DNA of 64,000 bases from Octopus vulgaris (Eukaryota). The DNA is taken from assembly GCA_951406725.2 (NCBI GenBank), contig OX597829.1, forward strand, positions 46,686,001-46,750,000, in the 5' to 3' direction. Position 1 is the first letter of the stretch; each line of letters begins with the position of its first letter. The translations under genes were made by a program, and so were the position numbers. The notes under the pieces were generated by a model. That model did not search any database. It saw only the letters and a list, made by a program, of their open reading frames with translations, and was not told where the DNA came from. This document shows positions 4,267 through 63,054 of the stretch, piece by piece.

Positions 4267-5006
4267 TAGTCATAATATTTATGACTACTCTGTCGCTAAT
4301 ATATATAATTGTGATAATTGATATATCAATGTAAGCATATCATGTTAGTCTAGAATTAAAACACATCAACACGCTATAACCCAAGGTGGCCCATGGGCTT
4401 ATGTCTCTTACTTCTTCCAATATAGCGTATGTATCTACTAGCTTATTAATTGCATACCAACTGCATTCGGATTCGTCTGACTTAGTCGTGTCTTCTTTCT
4501 TTATCTTTACTCTTTCTCATGGCATTCCTCATGTTTCCTTCTCTCTTTATGCTTTTTGCTTCTCCTACCCTCGACACTACTTTCGATTTTTTTTTCTTCC
4601 CATCCATAGAATATTACTTGGAGACAATAAACTTACAGACGTTAAAGCTGACTATCAACTCTATCGATCTGACAAGTCTGAAAATATTTGCAAAAATTTA
4701 TAAATGGCCTCTTTTCCTCAATATCGCAGAGAGACAGAGACAGAGACAGGGAGAGATGGAGAGATAGAGAGAAGATGGAGAGCGAGAGAAAGAGAGAGGG
4801 TGATGGGTTGGGAGGCAGAGGTGCGGAGGGAGAAAAAAAGTGAGGAATTAAGACAGAAGAGAGAGAGAGAGAGAGAGAGAAGAGAACTCTACCGCAATGC
4901 TACTCGTGCATTCCCCAAAGAAACAAATTTCGATTCTTCATTTTACTCAACTCATTTACATTATATAATTTGAAATGTCTCTGTCAGTTACAGCTTCTCA
5001 AATACA

Positions 5007-8698: not shown

Positions 8699-9337
8699 GC
8701 ATTCATAGGTGTTTGTGTGTATGCGGGCGTGTGACAGTGCGTGTGCGCATGCGTGCGAGTGTGTGTGTGTGCGTGCGTGCGTGTGAGTGTATCTGTGTGT
8801 TTGTGTATGTGCACATATCGTTTTTATTGTAGCTTGTGTTCAGTGATGATTGATTGAGGTAAAAAAACCCACAAGAATACGTTACGTACAACAAGTATTT
8901 TAACACGACCACACACGTGTGTAAATACACACGTGTGTAAATACACACATGCGTATACAAACACAGGCGTTTATCTAGATACAAATATGCATTCTAGCCA
9001 ATATTTACTCACACACTTCAAGTCATTAAGTACCCCCATGATAAATCTCTTTAAAAGAAAAACACCCAATAAATATGGAAGGAATACACAAAGAAAATTA
9101 AATAAAGGAAACTGTTTACTTGTGTTAAAAGAACTTTTGTAAACATTACTTGTCAAAGATGTAAAGTACCTGAGTAAATGGTTCTATGACATCATCTTAT
9201 CACGGGCTATCTTAAGTTTTGATGCCTCCCATTAAATTATCATGTTCTATTTTTCCTACATTATATTACTGTTATAAACCCAAACTCGAATATCAAAGTT
9301 TTAAAAGGTTTTAATCGAGTAAAAAAATACAGCAATA

Positions 9338-10346
9338 TACCTATATACCTATTTCTATACTACCCACAGGGGGCTAAACACAGAGAGGACAAACAAGGAC
9401 AGACAAAGGGGATTAAGTCGATTATATCGACCTCAGTGGGTAACTGGTACTTATTTCATCGACCTCAAAAGGATGAAAGGCAAAGTCGACCTCGGCGGAA
9501 TTTGAACTCTGAACGTAACGGCAGACGAAATACCTATTTCTATTTCTTTACTACCCACAAGGGGCTAAACACAGAGAGGACAAACAAGGACAGACAAAGG
9601 GGATTAAGTCGATTATATCGAACCCAGTGTGTAACTGGTACTTATTTCATCGACCTCAAAAGGATGAAAGGCAAAGTCGACCTCGGCGGAATTTGAACTC
9701 AGAACGTAACGGCAGACGAAATACCTATTTCTATTTCTTTACTACTCACAAGGGGCTAAACACAGAGAGGACAAACAAGGACAGACAAAGGGGATTAAAT
9801 CGATTATATCGAACCCAGTGCGCAACTGGTACTTATTTAATCGACCCCAAAAGTATGAAAGGCAAAGTCGACCTCGGCGGAATTTGAACTCTGAACGTAA
9901 CGGCAGACGAAATACCTATTTCTATTTCTTTACTACCCACAAGGGGCTAAACACAGAGGGGACAAACAAGGACAGACAAAGGGGATTAAGTCGATTATAT
10001 CGACCCCAGTGCGTAACTGGTACTTATTTAATCGACCCCAAAAGGATGAAAGGCAAAGTTGACCTCGGCGGAATTTGAACTCTGAACGTAACGGCAGACG
10101 AAATACCTATTTCTATTTCTTTACTACCCACAAGGGGCTAAACACAGAGGGGACAAACAAGGACAGACAAAGGGGATTAAGTCGATTATATCGACCCCAG
10201 TGCGTAACTGGTACTTATTTAATCGACCCCAAAAGAATGAAAGGCAAAGTCGACCTCGGCGGAATTTGAACTCAGAACGTAACGGCAGACGAAATATCAC
10301 TCAACATTTCGCTCGGCGTGCTAACGTTTCTGCCAGCTCGCCGCCA
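9338..10346 (-). mobile_element. Head-to-tail array of 5 SINE family A units (~191 bp period) with a single tRNA-like head
   Basis: Near-identical ORF-track hits start at 9436, 9627, 9818 and 10200. Only the rightmost unit has the 5' head GGCGGCGAGCTGGCAGAAACGTTAGC (A-box-like); each unit has the B-box-like GAGTTCAAATTCC. Confidence 0.9.
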
Positions 10347-10679
10347 CCATACAAACAAATATTGCTAAATTGTAAGCAAACCAAACTTCAACACAATAAC
10401 ATTTTTCTGCAGCGAGTTGCTACATTCTAGACTAACTAAAATCAACGCTGAACATGTCATCTGCAAACAGGCATATAACAGCAATCAAGACAATCAAAAT
10501 CATGTGGTCAAAACTGAAATCACAACATTACCATTTAAATTTAACAGTAATTAGCTTTAATTTAATAAGCTATATTTCATTTATTACTTCTCTTTCTTTT
10601 CCTGACATAAGGGCAAACTTCGGAGATCATTTTCGTCTTTAAATATAGTGGAGGGAATTAGCGCCACTAAGTGCATTCG

Positions 10680-20684: not shown

Positions 20685-21145
20685 CTTTCCTTACTAGCAA
20701 CACAGGGCCGAACAGAGAGAGGACAAAATACAATGTAGAACTTTTATCTTCAAAAGAAAAAAAAGAAAATAGACAGGATGGAAAGAAAAGCCTATGAAAA
20801 AGACCATGGTAACTTCAGGCATGGAGGGAAAAACACATGAGAACTAAGTGCTCTCTCTCTTTTGGATTCACAGGATCATGCTCAAAGTGGTTTCGTCATT
20901 CACACGTACCATCTTTGTTACATTCACCCGCCTTTTATTGAATATTTCATGAGACAAAACTTGCCTCTCTATTCTCACCTTCCTTTTCATGTGGTACTTG
21001 AAAAATGATGATGAGTGATTGGCCAGAGAGTAAAGTGTTTGTCTCTAAACCTTTCGTTCGAGTCCACCACACACATTCTTTCACCATGGCCACCAGTACG
21101 ATGAAAACTGTCTAGCCTTCTCGGCGGTGGAGCAATTTTCATGAT
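20684..21145 (-). mobile_element. 3' fragment of an L1/Tx1-clade LINE inside (GATA)n
   Basis: Colinear with 30826-31390 (CATGCTCAAAGTGGTTTCGTCATTC, TTTCACCATGGCCACCAGTA); (GATA)n on both sides. Confidence 0.85.
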
Positions 21146-21362: not shown

Positions 21363-21672
21363 CATACAGTATAATATTTATGTGTGTTTATGAAAGTTTA
21401 GGTTTTCTTCTAATTTTCGTCTTCTCTCATGTTTGGCAAACTAAACAGAAAAAAAGTCATATTAACTATTTTTAGCCATACAAAGATTTGCAAAATGATG
21501 AAAAGAAACATAATATTCACTGTAATACGATATATTATAATTTATCGGCATTTTACAGAATAAAAGAACCATATACTATAATAATAAAAAAAGGAAACAG
21601 AATACGCATCGTAATATAATATATTATAATTGAACGGCGTTATATGACATTAATAAAAGTCGTATAATATAA

Positions 21673-22310
21673 TCTTTTCTACTCTAGGCACAAGGCCCGA
21701 AATTTTGGGAAGGGACCAGTCGATTAGATCGACCCCAGTACGCAACTAGTCTTTAATTTATCGATCCCGAAAGAATCAATAAATTAAGACAAAGTCGACC
21801 TCGGTGGAATTTTATCCAGTACGTAAAGACAGACGAACTGCCTATTTCTTTACTACCCACAAGGGGCTAAACACAGAGGTGACAAACAAGGACAGACATA
21901 CGGATTAAGTCGATTATATCAACCCCAGTGCGTAACTGGTACTTAATTTATCGACCCCGGAAGGATGAAAGGCAAAATCGACCTCGGCAGATTTTGAACT
22001 CAGAACGTAACGGCAGACGAAATACCGCTAAGCATTTCGCCCGGCGTGCTAACGTTTCTGCTAGCTCGCCGCCATATATATTTCTTTACTACCCACAAGG
22101 GGCTAAACACAGAGGTGACAAAAAAGGATAGACAAAGGGATTAAGTCGATTACATCGACCCCAGTGCATAACTGGTACTTTGTTTATCGACCCCGAAAGG
22201 ATGAAAGGCAAAGTCGACCTCGGCAGAATTTGAACTCAGGACGTAGCGGCAGACGAAATACCGCTAGGCATTTCGCCCGTCGTGCTAACGCTTCTGCCAG
22301 CTCGCCACCT
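21673..22310 (-). mobile_element. Cluster of SINE family A copies (a dimer plus an adjacent monomer)
   Basis: Three AAAGTCGACCTCGG-type cores, two heads (ending ~22072 and ~22308), and two different tail types. Confidence 0.88.
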
Positions 22311-23429
22311 TCGTATAATATAATAATTATGAAAACAAAATAATTGTTTTGGAGGTATACTAGCCACACAAGTGATTTGATCTCAGACCGACAGTTGAAA
22401 CTGATGCAATTACAGCATAGGGGATACATATTATCCAGTCAATAACACGCAAAGACTGTTAACTTTATTCAAACTTTTATTATTTGCTATCCAAAATTTT
22501 CGTTGCACCAACTGCACAACAGGCGCAATTTCGCTGCACCAGAGAATATTTATTGGAATATGTTAGAATTTTAACAGCATATAAAAAGATATAAGACATG
22601 TCGAATAATATAATGAACAATCATAAACAATGCAACACAACTGTAATAACTATGGAAGTTCAAAAGGACAAAAAACATAAATATGATCAAGCGTGGATAT
22701 TAGATCTCTTTTGTCTCTTGTGGCCTCTATCATATTCTCTAACCATATTCCAATTGTAATCATCTATCATTACTGCTTCATCCCAACTACTATGATGCTA
22801 TTTTTCTTTAAATTATATATCTTTATGGAACCATGCTGCATTCTCTCTAGGTACAGTAATAAGATTTGATGCAAATACTGCAGTTTCAGTGATATTTTGC
22901 ATCTCATACTTGTCAAGCAGGTCCCACTTGCATCCCGTACTTGTCAAGCAGGTCTTTAATAAAACCGTTACAGCTTCACCCACTTTGTTGATAACATTCA
23001 AAGCGCTCTTCTTTATCATTTTCATTTTCATATCCAGAGCTTTGAGTGAAAGAATCTACATCACCTGTAGCCCAACAATGATATAAACTTCAAATTTTGT
23101 ACCTCACAATTTCGAAAACTTTATTCTCATCTGAGTATAATCTTCACCATATTTCGGTCTAAGGATGAGAAGAATTGCTTTCTCCGACACGGTTTTATGT
23201 AGAGAGAAGACAGAGGGACTTTTCCCTATTGATATAAGCGTATTGTGCTTTACTTTTTGGATATATGGCTGCAGGGATGATCGATATTGCCGTTCTCCTT
23301 TCACGTAATATTTTTCTCAACCGCTGTCAACTCACAAGCAGAAAAAAGTAAGGGCACTAAGTACTTCCTGAAATCACTACATTCACTCCATTTTCACTTG
23401 TCATGTCTAATATATATATATGTGTGTGT

Positions 23430-30825: not shown

Positions 30826-33210
30826 CTTTCTTTATTAGCCACACAGGACCGAACACAGAAGGGACAAAATACAATGTAGAGCTTTTATTTTCGAAAGAAA
30901 GAGAAAATAGAAAAAAATGAGAAAATAAATTTCCGATCAAAAGGGATAGTGTAAAAAGAAAGGGGGCGCGATCAAAAGGAACCGTGTATCACAGAAATGA
31001 AGAACAGAGTAAACATGTAAAAAGCAGATTAGATTTATCCGTGGAAGGGAAAGCCTATGACAAAGACCACGGTAACCTCAGGCAGGGAGTGGAAAATACA
31101 CATAAGAGCAAATTGCTCTCTCTCTCTCTCTGTTTTTTCGATTTACAGAATCATGCTCAAAGTGGTTTCGTCATTCGCGCGTACCATCTTTGCTACATTT
31201 ACCCACCTTATATGGAATCTTTCATTTTCAAGTGGTACGTGAAAAAGTTCATGAGCGTTTGGCGAGAGAGGAAAGTGTTTGTCTATAAACCTTTCGCTCG
31301 AATCCGCCACACGCATTCTTTCACCATGGCCACCAGTAAGAGGAAGACTGCATTGCATTCCAGGTTAAGCGAAGGTGGCGGAACAATTTTCACGTTAGAC
31401 TCGGCCGACAACCGAATTCGTCCCACACGTGACCGCATCCGTTCGGCATAAGCCCACAGGCCCGAAACAGTTGGATACTGCACGAGTGCATGCAGAACGG
31501 TTTCATCGCTCTGGCCGCATCTCGGGCAAGTCGGTCCGGTGCTTCTCGAACCGTGCATGTAGAGCTTATCCCGAACGGGCAATGCTTCCCGATAGCACTG
31601 CCAGACCAGGGATTTCTGGTGATTGTCCATAGATCCCGGCCCGAAAGTTGTCCTGAACAGGCAGGTCAGGTGTTCCCTGTCGTCGCCTAGACTCTACCCG
31701 AGAATGTCGTAGCGCCTCCCACCATTAATCCTCTATAGAACGCCTTTGTGGAATTGAAGTCGCACAAGTTTGGTCCCAGATGGCAGAGTTGCTTGAGAGC
31801 AAGGCAGCACTCACGGTGCCATTCGTGAACCTCGGTCTCTGTTTGATCCACGACTGTAGTTCGGCAAAAGAGACGAGCTGCGGGAAAGCGCACCACACAG
31901 ACGGCGACTATACTTGTTCACCGTCGTCTATGAAGCGCCGGAGATGTCGCAGTCTTAGCGCACGTCCGTGCATCATCAACCACGGCATGCCCAGCACTTC
32001 ATTTAGCGGGTGTTGACAGCAAATGGATCGCCTAACCATCGGAACTCTTCCCTTCCACAAAAAGCAGAAGAGTATGCGTTCCAATCTGGTGATGGTAGGG
32101 TCGGGACAAGGCACGACGATCAGACGGTACTCGATGACAGATGAAATGTATGCGTTCGCTAGCTCTGCTGATCTTTTAGGGATAGGTTCCTCTCAGCCCA
32201 TTGCTGTGTGAGAGTGGCCACCCTAACAGTTATCTCATCCCAGATCTCTATTTGGAGGTCCGGACCAAACCAGACTCCGAGCAATTTAACCGGTCCATCG
32301 GCCCAGCCTCCCAAGATGGAAACGCTGTTGGACGGCATGGACTTGCTTCTCCAGGTGCCGAGCCGCAAGCCTACTGAAATTTCCCGGTTAATTTTCGCTC
32401 CCGTTACCGCTTCGTATTTTTTTAATGTCTCGCCGTATGCAGACACGCTCCTCCCGCATTCCAGTCCCCGCGGGATGCCTCTAAATGTCGCCAGCTTCCG
32501 CAGTAGCGGCTGTAGAGTCAATGCGTATAAAAGCGACGAGAGAGGGCATCCTTGACGGGCCGAACGCGTGATGTTAAATGGTCTGGACAGATGACCATTT
32601 ACGCGAACTACTGAGCAGATGCCGCTGTATAATACAACGATCCAACCGCGTAAGGCGGGACCGAAACCAACCGCTCTAAGGACAGCCTCCGAGTAGCGAT
32701 GGTCCACCCCATCGAAAGCTTTTGATTGATGTAGCGCATCAGGTGGAGGCTGTCATGGATACACCTGCCCGGCATGGCGCACATTTGCACCTTGTCGGCC
32801 AGTTTCTCGATGACAAGCGCCAACGTCTCGGCTTATGCCTTGGCCAAAATCTTCATATCTGCGTTGAGCAGAGTGATGAGCCTGAAGTTATCTATGTTCC
32901 CTTTGTTTGGATCTTTCTTTAGCAGTGCCACCGCTGCTCGCTTTACAGAGACGGGGATACTCCCGCTTTGCAGCTAGTTGCAGTGGACCGCTGCTAAGAC
33001 GCCTCCAAACAAGTCTGACAATAAATTTCGTAGAGCAGACCATACAAGCCTGGCGACTTGTCTCCCGTCCAGCCTGCCATCGCATTCCGTACGTCCGCGT
33101 CTGTGATGGGTCTTTCACAACACTCTGCCTCTCTAGCCGAGAGTTGTGGACAGCCCGTGCAGCTAAGGCACTAAAGTCCATTCGACGTTCAGATCCACCT
33201 GTTGTCCCGA
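30826..33210 (-). mobile_element. 5'-truncated L1/Tx1-clade LINE (RT pseudogene, zf-RVT and 3' UTR)
   Basis: LNADMKILAK, MPGRCIHDS, RQGCPLSSLLY, VSAY, KLLGVWFG, FLWKG and CPRCGQSDETVLHAL over several broken frames; AATAAA near the 3' end next to (GATA/GACA)n. Confidence 0.9.
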
Positions 33211-38044: not shown

Positions 38045-38305
38045 TTCTTTTCTACTCTAGGCACAAGGCCCGAAATTTTGGGGGAGGGAGCCAGTCGATT
38101 AGATCAATCCCAGTACGCAACTGATACTTAATTTATCAACCTTGGCGGAATTTGAACTCAGAACATAAGGGCAGACGAAATTTAGATACTTTATATTTAT
38201 TTCTTTATTGCCCACAGGGGGCTAAACATAGAGGGGACAAAGAATGACAAACAAAGGGATTAAGTCGAAACAATTTGAACTCAGAACGTAAAGACAGACG
38301 AAATT
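38045..38305 (-). mobile_element. SINE family A dimer, partially deleted
   Basis: Both tail types are present; the junction falls just after GACGAAAT. Confidence 0.75.
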
Positions 38306-38667: not shown

Positions 38668-39045
38668 GTGGAGGCGCAATGGCCCAGTGGTTAGGGCAGT
38701 GGACTCGCGGTCATAAGATCGCGGTTTCGATTCCCAGACCAGGCGTTGTGAGTGTTTATTGAGCGAAAACACCTAAAAGCTCCACGAGGCTCCGGCAGGG
38801 GATGGTGGTGATCCCTGCTGTACTATTTCACCACAACTTTCTCTCTCTCTTTCTTCCTGTTTCTGTTGTACCTGTATTTCAAGGGGCCGGCCTTGTCACT
38901 CTCTGTGTCACGCTGAATATTCCCGAGAACTACGTTAAGGGTACACGTGTCTGTGGAGTGCTCAGCCACTTACACGTTAATTTCACGAGCAGGCTGTTCC
39001 GTTGATCAACCGGAACCCTCGTCGTCGTAACCGACGGAGTGCTTC
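38668..39045 (+). mobile_element. SINE family C (tRNA-Arg-like head) with 12-bp TSD
   Basis: TGGCCCAGTGGTTAGGGCAGTGGACTCGCGGTC...GGTTTCGATTCCC head; TSD TACTATGAAGAT at 38656-38667 and 39046-39057. Confidence 0.92.
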
Positions 39046-40990
39046 TACTATGAAGATATTTTAAATATTTTTGTTTTTTATGTGTGTATGGTAGTCTCAT
39101 TTTCATAAGTGCTCAGCAGCCCACGCTATGTAAGTGCAAATCTCAGCGCTTTATGGGTTAATTCTTTGAGTTATTGACTCTTTGTCGCTTTAAAAAATCT
39201 TTTCCTATTTTTCTGAAAAGCTTGTTCTTGCTAAGGGAGAGTCTTTTATATTTACGCCATAATAACTAACACACTCACCGATTCTATTTCCACTCAATTT
39301 ATATATATATTATATATATGGTGCCGGTGTAGTACGTGATTTACATACTTGTTTCTGGTATAGCTTGTCATCTACGTTAGTTCAAATGGTATAGTTTGTG
39401 ACCTACATTTAAAATTCATCTATTTACTCGACTTCCGGAAGGTTTGGTATATACCCCCCCCCCCCACCAAAAAAAAGTTATCATTTAAACACTTTCTGTC
39501 CTGAATCTATTGAAAGAAGTCGTGATGAGAGCAAAAGAATTTTACACACAGGTTATTCGAGATGAAGAAGCTACAATAGAATTTCTCTGACGCTATGAAC
39601 TCCTTGATGAATATGGAGATATTGATCCATCTCTAATTATAATTGCAAATTTATAACACAATTTTGAATGTAGATCACAAGCTAGTTTCGATTTAAGTTG
39701 CAGTAGATCGCAATGGCATGTAGATTGCATACAACACCGAACCTATTTGTTCTCTTCCAGAATTTCCGTTGCTTCTTGAAACCTTCTCAATAGTTGTTGA
39801 CTCTGTCCACTATCGAAGCTGCGTTCATCACATTTGTTCGTGCGAACGTGTGTGCGTCAGCGTGCATGTGTATACAAATATGTATGAGTATGTGTATGCA
39901 TATATGTACGAACGCATGTGTGTACGTATGTATGCATTTTGCATATTCAAGCTTTTGTGCGTGCGTGTTTGTGTGTTTATATGTATAAGCGCATGTGCGT
40001 GAGTGTGTGTGTGTGTGTGTCTTTGTGTGTGTGCCTCTGTCTCCTTGTGACTGCGTGTTTGAGTGCGTCCATATGTATGTGGCTATGTACGTGCGTCTGT
40101 TATGTATGGATATTAGTCTCCATATGTGCCTTTGTATGTATGCGTATGTGTGTGGAGAGTGTGTGTGTATGGTCATGTTTTTTGCTTGCTTTGAGACCTA
40201 TACTGAACATACCAATGTGTTCTTAACGCACCACTTATCTGCTCCGTAACAGAAGATGATTTAACAGTTGACCTCCTATCGTAAGCTTTACAAGTATGCT
40301 CAGACGTTTGAAGCTGCAAATGTTTATCAGATTATGAGTAATGATTTAGACACACAGATAAATGGTCGAAGGAGACTGGCATGAAATATTCTGTAGAGCT
40401 TCTATAGAAAAGATTGCCTCTTAAGTACAGGGAAGACCTTGAGCACTTGACCACTATGCATTTTGTCCGGTGTGCTAACTATTCCGCCAGCTCGCCTCCT
40501 TAATCATAATAACCTTGATGATGATGATCATGATGATGATGATATCTAGGAATCAGTGGCGGCACTGCTGTGAAACCATTCACACAAAACTCATAAACTA
40601 TCAAGCTATTTTACTGGGAATTATTTTCAAATGACAGGAAGTGTATTGGATGGATGCACTCCATTTAACACGGCTTTATTATCATAAGCGCATTAACACT
40701 CAAGCGTTGCTGCTGCTGCTGCTAGTGATGTTACCAGTGATGGTGGCAGTGGTAGTGGTGGTAGTGGTGGTGGTCATCACCTTCATGAACAGTACCTTGC
40801 CGTTATCTCTTGCAAACTTACAGAAAATTCTTGGCAAATAGATTACGATTCCTATTTCATTTTTATTTTTCTAGGGTGGTTATGTTTTCATATATGCCTA
40901 TAAGTTACAATTACATACTGGAATATGCGACGATGGATATTAAGAACACGTACACTAACGCACGCACACCCACATACAGACACGCGCGCG

Positions 40991-46066: not shown

Positions 46067-46198
46067 CTCTCTCTCCGTATCTGTCTCTCTGTCTCTCACT
46101 GTGCCAGTGCGTATGTGTTTGTGAATGTATTGGTGTATTTGAATGTATGTGAGTGTGCCTAAGCGTGTATTTGTGCGTGTTTACCTGTGTGTGTGTGA

Positions 46199-46231
<33 letters not shown>

Positions 46232-46260
46232 AGTGAGTGAGTGTGTGTTTGTGAGTGTGT

Positions 46261-46319
46261 GTGCGTGTGTGCTGTACATTGTACGTGGAGTTGTGTATAT
46301 CATATTTGTGCGTGTGTAC

Positions 46320-46350
<31 letters not shown>

Positions 46351-46621
46351 AGTGTGAGTGAGTGAGTGTATGTGTGTGTGTGTGTGTGAGTGAGTGAGTG
46401 TGTGTTTGTGTGTGTGTGTGTGTGTGTGCTGTACATTGTACGTGGAGTTGTGTATATCATATTTGTGCATGTGTACCTCTGTGTGTGTGTGTGTGTGTGA
46501 GTGTGAGTGAGTGAGTGTATGTGTGTGTGTGTGTGTGAGTGAGTGAGTGAGTGTGTGTTTGTGTGTGTGTGTGCTGTACATTGTACGTGGAGTTGTGTAT
46601 ATCATATTTGTGCATGTGTAC

Positions 46622-46658
<37 letters not shown>

Positions 46659-46703
46659 TGTGAGTGAGTGAGTGTATGTGTGTGTGTGTGTGAGTGAGTG
46701 AGT

Positions 46704-46742
<39 letters not shown>

Positions 46743-46786
46743 ACATTGTACGTGGAGTTGTGTATATCATATTTGTGCGTGTGTAC

Positions 46787-46817
<31 letters not shown>

Positions 46818-47065
46818 AGTGTGAGTGAGTGAGTGTATGTGTGTGTGTGTGTGTGAGTGAGTGAGTGTGTGTTTGTGTGTGTGTGTGTGTGTGCTGTACA
46901 TTGTACGTGGAGTTGTGTATATCATATTTGTGCGTGTGTACCTGTGTGTGTGCGTGTACCTGTGTGAGTGTGTGTGTGTGTGTGTGTGTTCGTGTGTACC
47001 TGTGGTTGTCTTGTGTGTGTGCGAGTATGCTATACATTGTACGCGGTGTTGTGTATATATCATAA
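46261..47065. repeat. Minisatellite of ~6 units (~140-165 bp): unique core plus variable (GT)n/(GAGT)n
   Basis: Core GCTGTACATTGTACGTGGAGTTGTGTATATCATATTTGTG recurs at ~46271, 46428, 46573, 46738 and 46893, with a degenerate copy at ~47029. Confidence 0.9.
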
Positions 47066-54827: not shown

Positions 54828-55255
54828 ATACATAAACGTACACACCAAATAATGATAACAAGCATAACAAATAATAATGGTCCTTTTCTATTATAGGGAC
54901 AATGCCAGCAATTTGTGTGGGGTGGGGAAAGTTAATTACGTCGACTGGTAATTTATTTATTAAATACATAACGTACACACCAAATGATAATAACAAGCAT
55001 AACAAATAATAATGGTCCTTTCTATTATAGGGGACAATGCCAGCAATTTGTGTGGGGTGGGGAAAGTTAATTACGTCGACTGGTAATTTATTTATTAAAT
55101 ACATAACGTACACACCAAATGATAATAACAAGCATAACAAATAATAATGGTCCTTTCTATTATAGGGGACAATGCCAGCAATTTGTGTGGGGTGGGGAAA
55201 GTTAATTACGTCGACTGGTAATTTATTTATCGACCTTGAAAGGATGAAGGGCAAA
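54828..55255. repeat. Three tandem 135-bp units spanning a SINE A tail and its flank
   Basis: CACACCAAAT at 54841, 54976 and 55111; the third unit continues into the SINE A core CGACCTTGAAAGGATGAAGGGCAAA. Confidence 0.9.
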
Positions 55256-62579: not shown

Positions 62580-62765
62580 GAAATAACATCGCAATTATGC
62601 AAAATAATGCTTTGTCATTAAAGGAAAAAACAATGCCAGTAGAAAAATATAGTATGATATAAAAAGTTTAAAAAAACTGTTTGGAGCAAAATTTGAGACT
62701 TGGTCATTCGTATTTCAAAGCTATATATCCAGAAAACAGTTGGGTTTCAAGATTTTCTTTTTCTA

Positions 62766-63054
62766 AGGCGGCAGAAACGTTAGCACGCCGAGCGAAGTGC
62801 TTAGCGGTATTTCATATATAATAGGCGGCGAGCTGGCAGAAACGTTAGCACGCCGGGCGAAATGCTTAGCGGTATTTCGTCTGCGTTACGTTGTGAGTTC
62901 AAATTCCGCCTTTCATCCTTTCGGGGTCGATAAATTAAGTACCAGTTACGCACTGGGGTCGATGTAATCGACTTAATACCTATGTCTGTCCTTGTTTGTC
63001 TCCTCTGTGTTTAGCCCCTTGTGGGTAATAAAGAAACAGGTATTTCATATATAA
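62766..63054 (+). mobile_element. SINE family A: short head fragment followed by a young full copy with the Tx1-like tail
   Basis: Head GGCGGCGAGCTGGCAGAAACG at 62824; GGTATTTCATATATAA at both 62806 and 63039. Confidence 0.88.

Follow-up and report, generated by a model that had tools for sequence, protein, structure and literature searches.

The five-unit array and its SINE family

At positions 9349-10345 (minus strand) of the window, i.e., the whole analysed stretch of 64,000 nt of Octopus vulgaris DNA, a tandem array is located which consists of a single 47-nt SINE head and five 191-bp units:

10299..10345, minus strand: SINE head, bases 1-47, of which the array has a single copy
10108..10298, minus strand: unit 1, body starting from GATATTTC (decayed motif), core, and LINE-like A tail carrying a private GAAATA doubling
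9917..10107, minus strand: unit 2, beginning with GGTATTTC
9726..9916, minus strand: unit 3, beginning with GGTATTTC
9535..9725, minus strand: unit 4, beginning with GGTATTTC
9349..9534, minus strand: unit 5, ending in TATAGAAATAG followed by GTATATAGGTATAT

A preliminary description of this DNA had reported five units joined tail to motif, and indeed GGTATTTC is situated at all four joins (10107, 9916, 9725, and 9534), each preceded by a tail ending in AAAGAAATAGAAATA. The window contains 13 copies of the motif, at a chance expectation of 2.2. The inverted match GAAATA-GG-TATTTC described for the join is present as well, and GGTATTTC also opens the 3' arm of the 13-bp hairpin of the head itself (285-nt fold, z -3.5). 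No clear outer target site duplication (TSD) of the array was found in its two flanks.

The private combination of CCCC and the GAAATA doubling has four matches in the genome, all of them inside this array, and further variants are common to units 3-5, units 3-4, and units 4-5, i.e., in a nested, neighbour-wise pattern. In arrays of four to five units, 1.4-1.5 rare variants are shared per pair of units versus 0.07 between loci (about 20-fold), whereas the variant sharing of dimer units gives no sign of duplication. Due to the private variants found nowhere else and the variants shared by neighbours, the array likely grew stepwise in place by local DNA duplication and not from circular RNA, as far as the sequence can tell; the local duplication proposed earlier from variants in adjacent units is in good agreement with this. 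Local tandem expansion of a SINE part, a feature of SINE-derived satellites, is found in this array and in other long arrays. In contigs of four DNA runs compared to the array, other copies dominate and no locus-specific allele was seen. Two unrelated tandem arrays, with a period of 157 and five copies (46186-46988) and a period of 135 and three copies (54828-55230), occur in the window, and at 38670-39050 there seems, judging from the sequence, to be a further short element resembling a repeat, the other strand of which carries a tRNA-like word.

The units belong to a SINE family with a common head and core and two tail types, called A and B. The monomer comprises 232 nt, is non-coding, and occurs in high copy number as is typical of SINEs. 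Exact word counts in the searched 2.8 Gb genome are 74,590 for heads and 84,424 plus 25,293 for tails, and the junction word AAAGAAATAGGTATTTC is matched exactly 52,829 times, compared to 2 for a control word. The family is one of the most abundant repeats of this genome, with tens of thousands of junctions. Its last ~45 nt align to the 3' ends of five LINE loci of the APE/RT/zf-RVT type, hence the tail is shared with LINEs. TSDs, which were recovered for under half of the loci, were found in 32/92 loci of one set, in 21/54 A-only chains, in 49/105 chains of A and B units (A+B chains), and in 24/79 B monomers, compared to 0.7% in shuffled pairs.

ARAGORN and Rfam searches of the head gave no matches, and an snRNA-derived head as in SINEU elements finds no counterpart in Rfam for 9300-10400 at E-values up to 1. 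Further down, a B-box-like word is located, which may reflect a tRNA-like Pol III origin of the head, and the central part may resemble the Meta domain of MetaSINEs. Two core words of the SINE are absent from two supplements of PMC4824008, and the family was not identified from the parts of PMC4824008 and PMC4758252 that were available.

Joins and nested insertions at the motif

Several further SINE and LINE loci of the window are relevant to the position of the joins:

62763..62821, plus strand: pre-existing head stub, the last 16 bases of which (62806-62821) are the 5' TSD copy GGTATTTCATATATAA
62824..63038, plus strand: full-length A copy at the GGTATTTC of the stub, with a 17-bp internal deletion
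63039..63054, plus strand: 3' TSD copy, identical to 62806-62821
22079..22309, minus strand: full A copy; TATA links it to the full head that follows, in contrast to the usual GGTATTTC join
21843..22074, minus strand: full A copy
21674..21842, minus strand: older headless B-tailed unit, starting from the decayed motif GGCAGTTCG
38046..38304, minus strand: degenerate pair of a 5'-truncated A and a B copy, joined without GGTATTTC
30827..30900, minus strand: old Tx1/L1-like LINE 3' end with a SINE-A-like tail, followed by TATC-type repeats
20686..20760: second such LINE 3' end

The locus at 62770-63054 is a nested self-insertion with a perfect 16-bp TSD. The motif was correctly described as ending both the stub and the full copy, at 62806 and 63039, and it represents the start of the TSD GGTATTTCATATATAA. 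The other two loci at which the junction had been said to recur are less regular. Near 21840 the join falls at the same position, but it reads GGCAGTTCG and enters a B-tailed unit; one outer TSD, ATTATATTATACGA (22311-22324 and 21660-21673), encloses all three parts between 21674 and 22309. Near 38180 the position fits as well, but the tail ends in AAAGTATCTAAATTTCG with extra bases and GGTATTTC is missing.

A sample of 38 random 10-kb stretches together with the window contains 23 loci with A copies, 11 of which are multimers. Among 77 A-type tails that were not chosen for a junction, 44 are terminal and 33 continue, and 27 of these 33 join at GGTATTTC (26 by script, including L116, which is a LINE-type 3' end and not a SINE, and L259 by eye). 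The remaining six joins comprise two at head base 15 (AGAAAC), two near base 15 by eye (L126 and L253), one at a full head (22079/22074 in the window), and a degenerate one. Joins thus fall mostly, but not always as had been claimed, at GGTATTTC, with up to four exceptions near head base 15.

A minor second class of joins, of CAAT-type tails to head base 15 (AGAAAC), was observed at L091, L092, L184, and L210. In one unstranded RNA run filed under another organism code, 935 reads connect the tail to head base 15, the top joint, and the base-48 join seen here is absent among the 15 joints listed for this single run, which is a hint that the preferred site differs between lineages. Other arrangements comprise a ten-copy 84-bp tandem of the SINE 5' part (C22:20052857-20053642) and, at L475-L476, a head-deleted SINE that recurs, each copy being preceded by an identical flank, similar to a TSD-(SINE-TSD)n form. 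Chimeric chains of this SINE will be broken up by repeat libraries into numerous spurious families and assigned wrong ages.

Genome-wide, GGTATTTC followed within 0-25 nt by a full head gave 653 matches, compared to 62 for the control 8-mer GAGTTCAA, a word present in every unit. By chance ~92 and ~138 matches, respectively, are expected, which corresponds to a 7-fold excess for GGTATTTC; these expectations were calculated by hand from the 74,590 heads and background rates in 380 kb, with a single control word. Of the first 30 of the 653 loci, 25 possess a TSD that opens with the motif and measures 8-20 bp (median 13), and SINE sequence lies on both sides in 17. According to a script, the hosts of these 30 are a head in 11 cases, an old junction in 7, and other sequence in 12, some of which are decayed SINEs by eye. 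A tails often precede the motif anyway, and therefore most weight falls on loci where the TSD sequence on both sides is private or unique: at L184, L199, L200, L205, and L210 both TSD copies carry the same private variants, and at L181, L186, L189, L194, L204, and L209 the TSDs consist of unique sequence. Two to three units are enclosed by one TSD at L183, L184, and L208. The SINE inserts preferentially at GGTATTTC in its own head, and the site-specific self-insertion proposed in the preliminary description is thus supported by TSD-flanked nested copies, by the excess over expectation, and by a LINE 3' end joined to the same base (see below). In addition, at L122 (minus strand, near 4781) an A copy appears to have entered a different SINE at GGTACT, on the opposite strand.

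As a point against the route proposed below, nested copies that retain the host stub are few, i.e., 653 out of 74,590 exact heads (0.9%), and head stubs occur in 5/105 A+B chains, 1/54 A-only chains, and 5/92 loci of a further set. Most multimers lack a host stub and begin with a full head. Due to the small number of stub-bearing copies, the step from nested copies to such seamless, head-skipping chains, which is proposed below, would carry most of the numbers.

Origin of the chains and choice of the site

Of 105 A+B chains, 91 end in a B unit that has diverged further than the first unit, and the reverse is true in 10. The last B units are mutually as unrelated as B monomers (pairwise divergence of 0.176, n=29, versus 0.189, n=25), whereas the heads of A+B chains are young (0.069 versus 0.128 in B monomers). 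Since the locus sets were partly picked by exact motifs, heads were compared on bases 3-27 only. An A-only head variant is present in 28 out of 105 A+B chains and in none of 79 B monomers. As the head is young and carries this variant, head and first unit derive from one young RNA. A comparison of 75 A+B chains (2,775 pairs) revealed no daughter families.

These ages bear on the possibility that every junction goes back to a single ancestral dimer master, or to a few, with subsequent unequal crossover, a case the preliminary description had named as contrary to its proposal. The high precision of the junction and the local expansion of long arrays would fit such an origin, but the last units form a star-like set older than the first ones, several subtypes follow the junction, and independent TSD-flanked insertions exist at the site. 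A single dimer master is ruled out by the older and mutually unrelated last units, and descent from a handful of them is very improbable. Marginally less credit still is due to a GGTATTTC-to-GGTATTTC unit that circularises and is reverse transcribed in a rolling manner as in retrozymes. Fixed unit boundaries and the high internal similarity of long arrays speak for a circle, but most multimers start with a full head, which is situated outside the proposed circle, and the two units of a dimer show nearly as many differences at diagnostic sites as randomly paired units (4.12 versus 4.56), with 1 out of 57 dimers identical. In the array at 9349-10345 the nested variants do not point to one template, and no match to a described ribozyme was found in Rfam. 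A rolling circle would give headless, identical units, which were not seen; the retrozyme-like route of the preliminary description, faced with an outside head, mixed subfamilies and ages, and no Rfam ribozyme, is therefore unlikely. RNA reads across tail junctions also arise from genomic multimers. With respect to variant patterns within arrays, local expansion is supported for the long arrays, but dimers mix subfamilies and do not reflect a single template.

More plausible, although still rather unlikely, is an origin of most seamless chains by template switching during reverse transcription, in which cDNA begun on an older B or A RNA jumps at GGUAUUUC to the end of a young A RNA. This would explain a young head and first unit followed by an old, unrelated last unit, and it accounts for the missing stub and the missing daughter families. 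It leaves the TSD-flanked nested copies unexplained, however, and 5' truncations show no accumulation at base 48 (1 out of 42 exactly at this base, 10 within 48-55). Moreover, template switching predicts young outer TSDs, but the measured mismatch of A+B chains is intermediate (50/570, 0.088) between that of A-ended loci (36/572, 0.063) and B monomers (33/289, 0.114), differing from neither (p 0.12 and 0.22). RNA cleaved at the loop was rejected as a source because of the same lack of a 5'-truncation pile-up at base 48.

Read-through re-insertion of a nested copy would yield exactly the seamless form, and L183, L184, and L208 fit this route, but the lack of daughter families among the 75 chains does not; replacement of the host head in place or a template switch would also yield seamless chains. 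Neither TSD age nor its per-locus correlation with unit age separates these routes, and head age is not significantly correlated with either the first or the last unit. The signal of a hidden TSD at the starts of units 1 and 2 of seamless dimers is weak. At bases 0-12 of seamless-dimer units, 8 shared variants were counted versus 1.6 expected (about 2-fold elsewhere; n=58).

The LINEs with SINE-A-like tails encode APE, RT, and zf-RVT domains in this order and belong to several families. L522 contains the decayed 3' half of an APE/RT-type ORF2 (residues 825-1136, 45% identity to the ORF2 of L241), and its tail joins GGTATTTCGTC of a B body. The tail pattern of the L522 subfamily joins GGTATTTC at 5 out of 8 places, and L116 does likewise. 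A target shared by SINE and LINE, as known from SINEU elements, is thus seen at L522, at L116, and at five of eight tails, all of them decayed copies. Domain order and fixed targets suggest that the partner LINE is a member of the Tx1 clade. Since the same base is joined by a similar tail of a decayed, Tx1-like LINE, a borrowed Tx1-type endonuclease is the likelier cause of the GGTATTTC site.

Among 20 sampled zf-RVT LINE 3' ends, none lies in a SINE head; patterns for other elements joined at the site yielded SINE variants only, with 20 out of 20 matches in one case and no LINE among 25 in another, and the protein search for a partner LINE returned the young TATC family alone. The latter (L241:617-4066, minus strand, and L445-L474) is a very young LINE family that ends in, and is often flanked by, (TATC)n, with other simple repeats at some of its ends; 150 out of 150 scored matches of its endonuclease region are at 100% identity, and many members have a full 1149-aa frame. 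As a partner the (TATC)n-ending L241 was discarded: 0 of 30 of its 3' ends precede TAGGTAT, and none joins at the site, so L241 is regarded as a relative and not as the demonstrated partner. In L505-L508 and in L511, L513, and L515, LINE 3' ends from different chromosomes are followed by the same downstream sequence within each group, which suggests further site-specific Tx1-like families. Four zf-RVT matches on C2 near 73.05 Mb are stacked ~5.4 kb apart.

Alternatively, base pairing between the nicked strand and read-through GGUAU(UUC) behind the tail could be the main determinant of the site, the endonuclease having just a loose preference, which we regard as possible but not probable. Among copies not chosen for a junction, GGTA follows 11 out of 18 terminal TAGT tails versus 2 out of 23 CAAT tails, and it is present in the 5' flank of 11/49 versus 3/44 (p 0.044) in a set partly enriched for junction loci. 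For B tails ending in GAATA, AATAT occurs in 39 out of 122 5' flanks (~5 expected). At L009, L085, L089, and L110 the 3' TSD copy matches GGTAT where the 5' copy does not, and R2 targeting is described as reinforced by co-transcribed target sequence in the part of PMC4494074 considered here. On the other hand, correction of the 3' TSD by RNA is not significant (9 versus 5, p 0.42), a LINE 3' end lies at the same base as the SINE joins, and many Tx1-like families with similar tails have apparently fixed, different targets. Due to the existence of such families, tail-dependent targets could also reflect different partner enzymes.

Proposed route and comparison with known systems

We consider it probable that the SINE prefers GGTATTTC in heads and old joins of its own family, with a likely Tx1-type nick, and that the array likely grew locally. 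The route would begin with full-length copies at GGTATTTC, seen with 8-20 bp TSDs in SINE heads, old junctions, and unrelated GGTATTTC sites. The nick would be made by a Tx1-like partner whose tail the SINE carries, and read-through GGUAU(UUC) behind the tail may assist by pairing with the primer. A nested copy may then be transcribed from its own head through the remainder of the host and re-inserted elsewhere, or the new cDNA may replace the host head in place; either way, the product would start with a young head and its unit and continue into an older unit that lacks a head. Long arrays, judging from their variant patterns, would expand by unequal exchange or slippage between units. As every junction rebuilds the target, the process would feed itself. 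The complete picture of a self-homing SINE, with the site of a partner LINE in its own head that is rebuilt by each join, a read-through RNA guide, and a site that shifts between lineages, is a tentative one that we favour slightly more than site choice by RNA pairing.

The closest published mechanism, according to the parts of the literature considered, is that of the crocodilian SINEU-3 and Tx1-Mar (PMC4494074), in which the SINE shares the target of a Tx1-clade LINE inside another repeat, Mariner-N4_AMi. There, 90% of the copies are on target, and sequential tandem insertions are separated by a TSD. The octopus SINE likewise shares a target site with a Tx1-like LINE inside a repeat, but it targets its own head and each junction rebuilds the target; the majority of chains are seamless, and the majority of copies lie off target. 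In the same source a SINE is regarded as targeted if >20% of its copies are target-flanked; here, 27 out of 77 tails precede the site, and host stubs on the 5' side occur in just 11 out of 251 A-headed loci. APE-type LINEs with repeat-specific targets, i.e., Tx1L in Tx1D, Keno, Kibi, and Koshi, are also described there (PMC4494074). Several such families are present in the octopus genome, but those LINEs are autonomous, whereas in octopus the non-autonomous passenger is itself the target.

In case of the clam Scapharca broughtonii, TSD1-(SINE)n-TSD1 and TSD1-(SINE-TSD1)n arrays of 4-15 units are described (PMC11481361). Similar to the octopus chains, a single TSD encloses one complete head and a series of units that all begin at a fixed position of the head; in S. 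broughtonii, however, internal tails are truncated, unequal recombination is proposed, and ~3% of the SINEs are in arrays, compared to about half of the octopus A loci (11/23). The part of this account considered makes no mention of self-targeting. For SINE-derived satellites (sSat) in squamates, unequal recombination and insertion into the same locus were suggested (PMC10702118). The tandems of a SINE part and the greater uniformity of longer arrays are common to both systems, whereas a fixed, TSD-backed insertion site or a LINE partner does not appear in the part of the squamate account considered. An octopus repeat survey lists SINE and L1-Tx1 families, and its accessible part contains no such mechanism (PMC13282606). 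No report of a self-targeting SINE was found in the literature covered, with subscription journals and Repbase mostly outside this coverage.

Retrozymes form short-unit multimers in genomes via a circular RNA intermediate and a self-cleaving ribozyme. The octopus SINE also forms genomic multimers of a short unit, but differs from retrozymes by the lack of a ribozyme match, the single head outside the repeat, units of mixed age, the LINE-like tail, and TSDs.

SINEs are commonly assumed to show little preference for particular insertion sites. The phenomenon in octopus is real and abundant; new is the targeting of a SINE's own head, directed as it seems by a Tx1-type partner, and ordinary is the local expansion on top of it. 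If true, a self-homing SINE would represent a self-reinforcing path by which dispersed SINEs turn into tandem repeats, and an abundant SINE would be both passenger and target of Tx1-like LINEs. It would furthermore provide a concrete, testable mechanism for the arrays with one head and many bodies in clams and reptiles, as well as a natural system in which to ask what selects the site, the endonuclease or RNA pairing.
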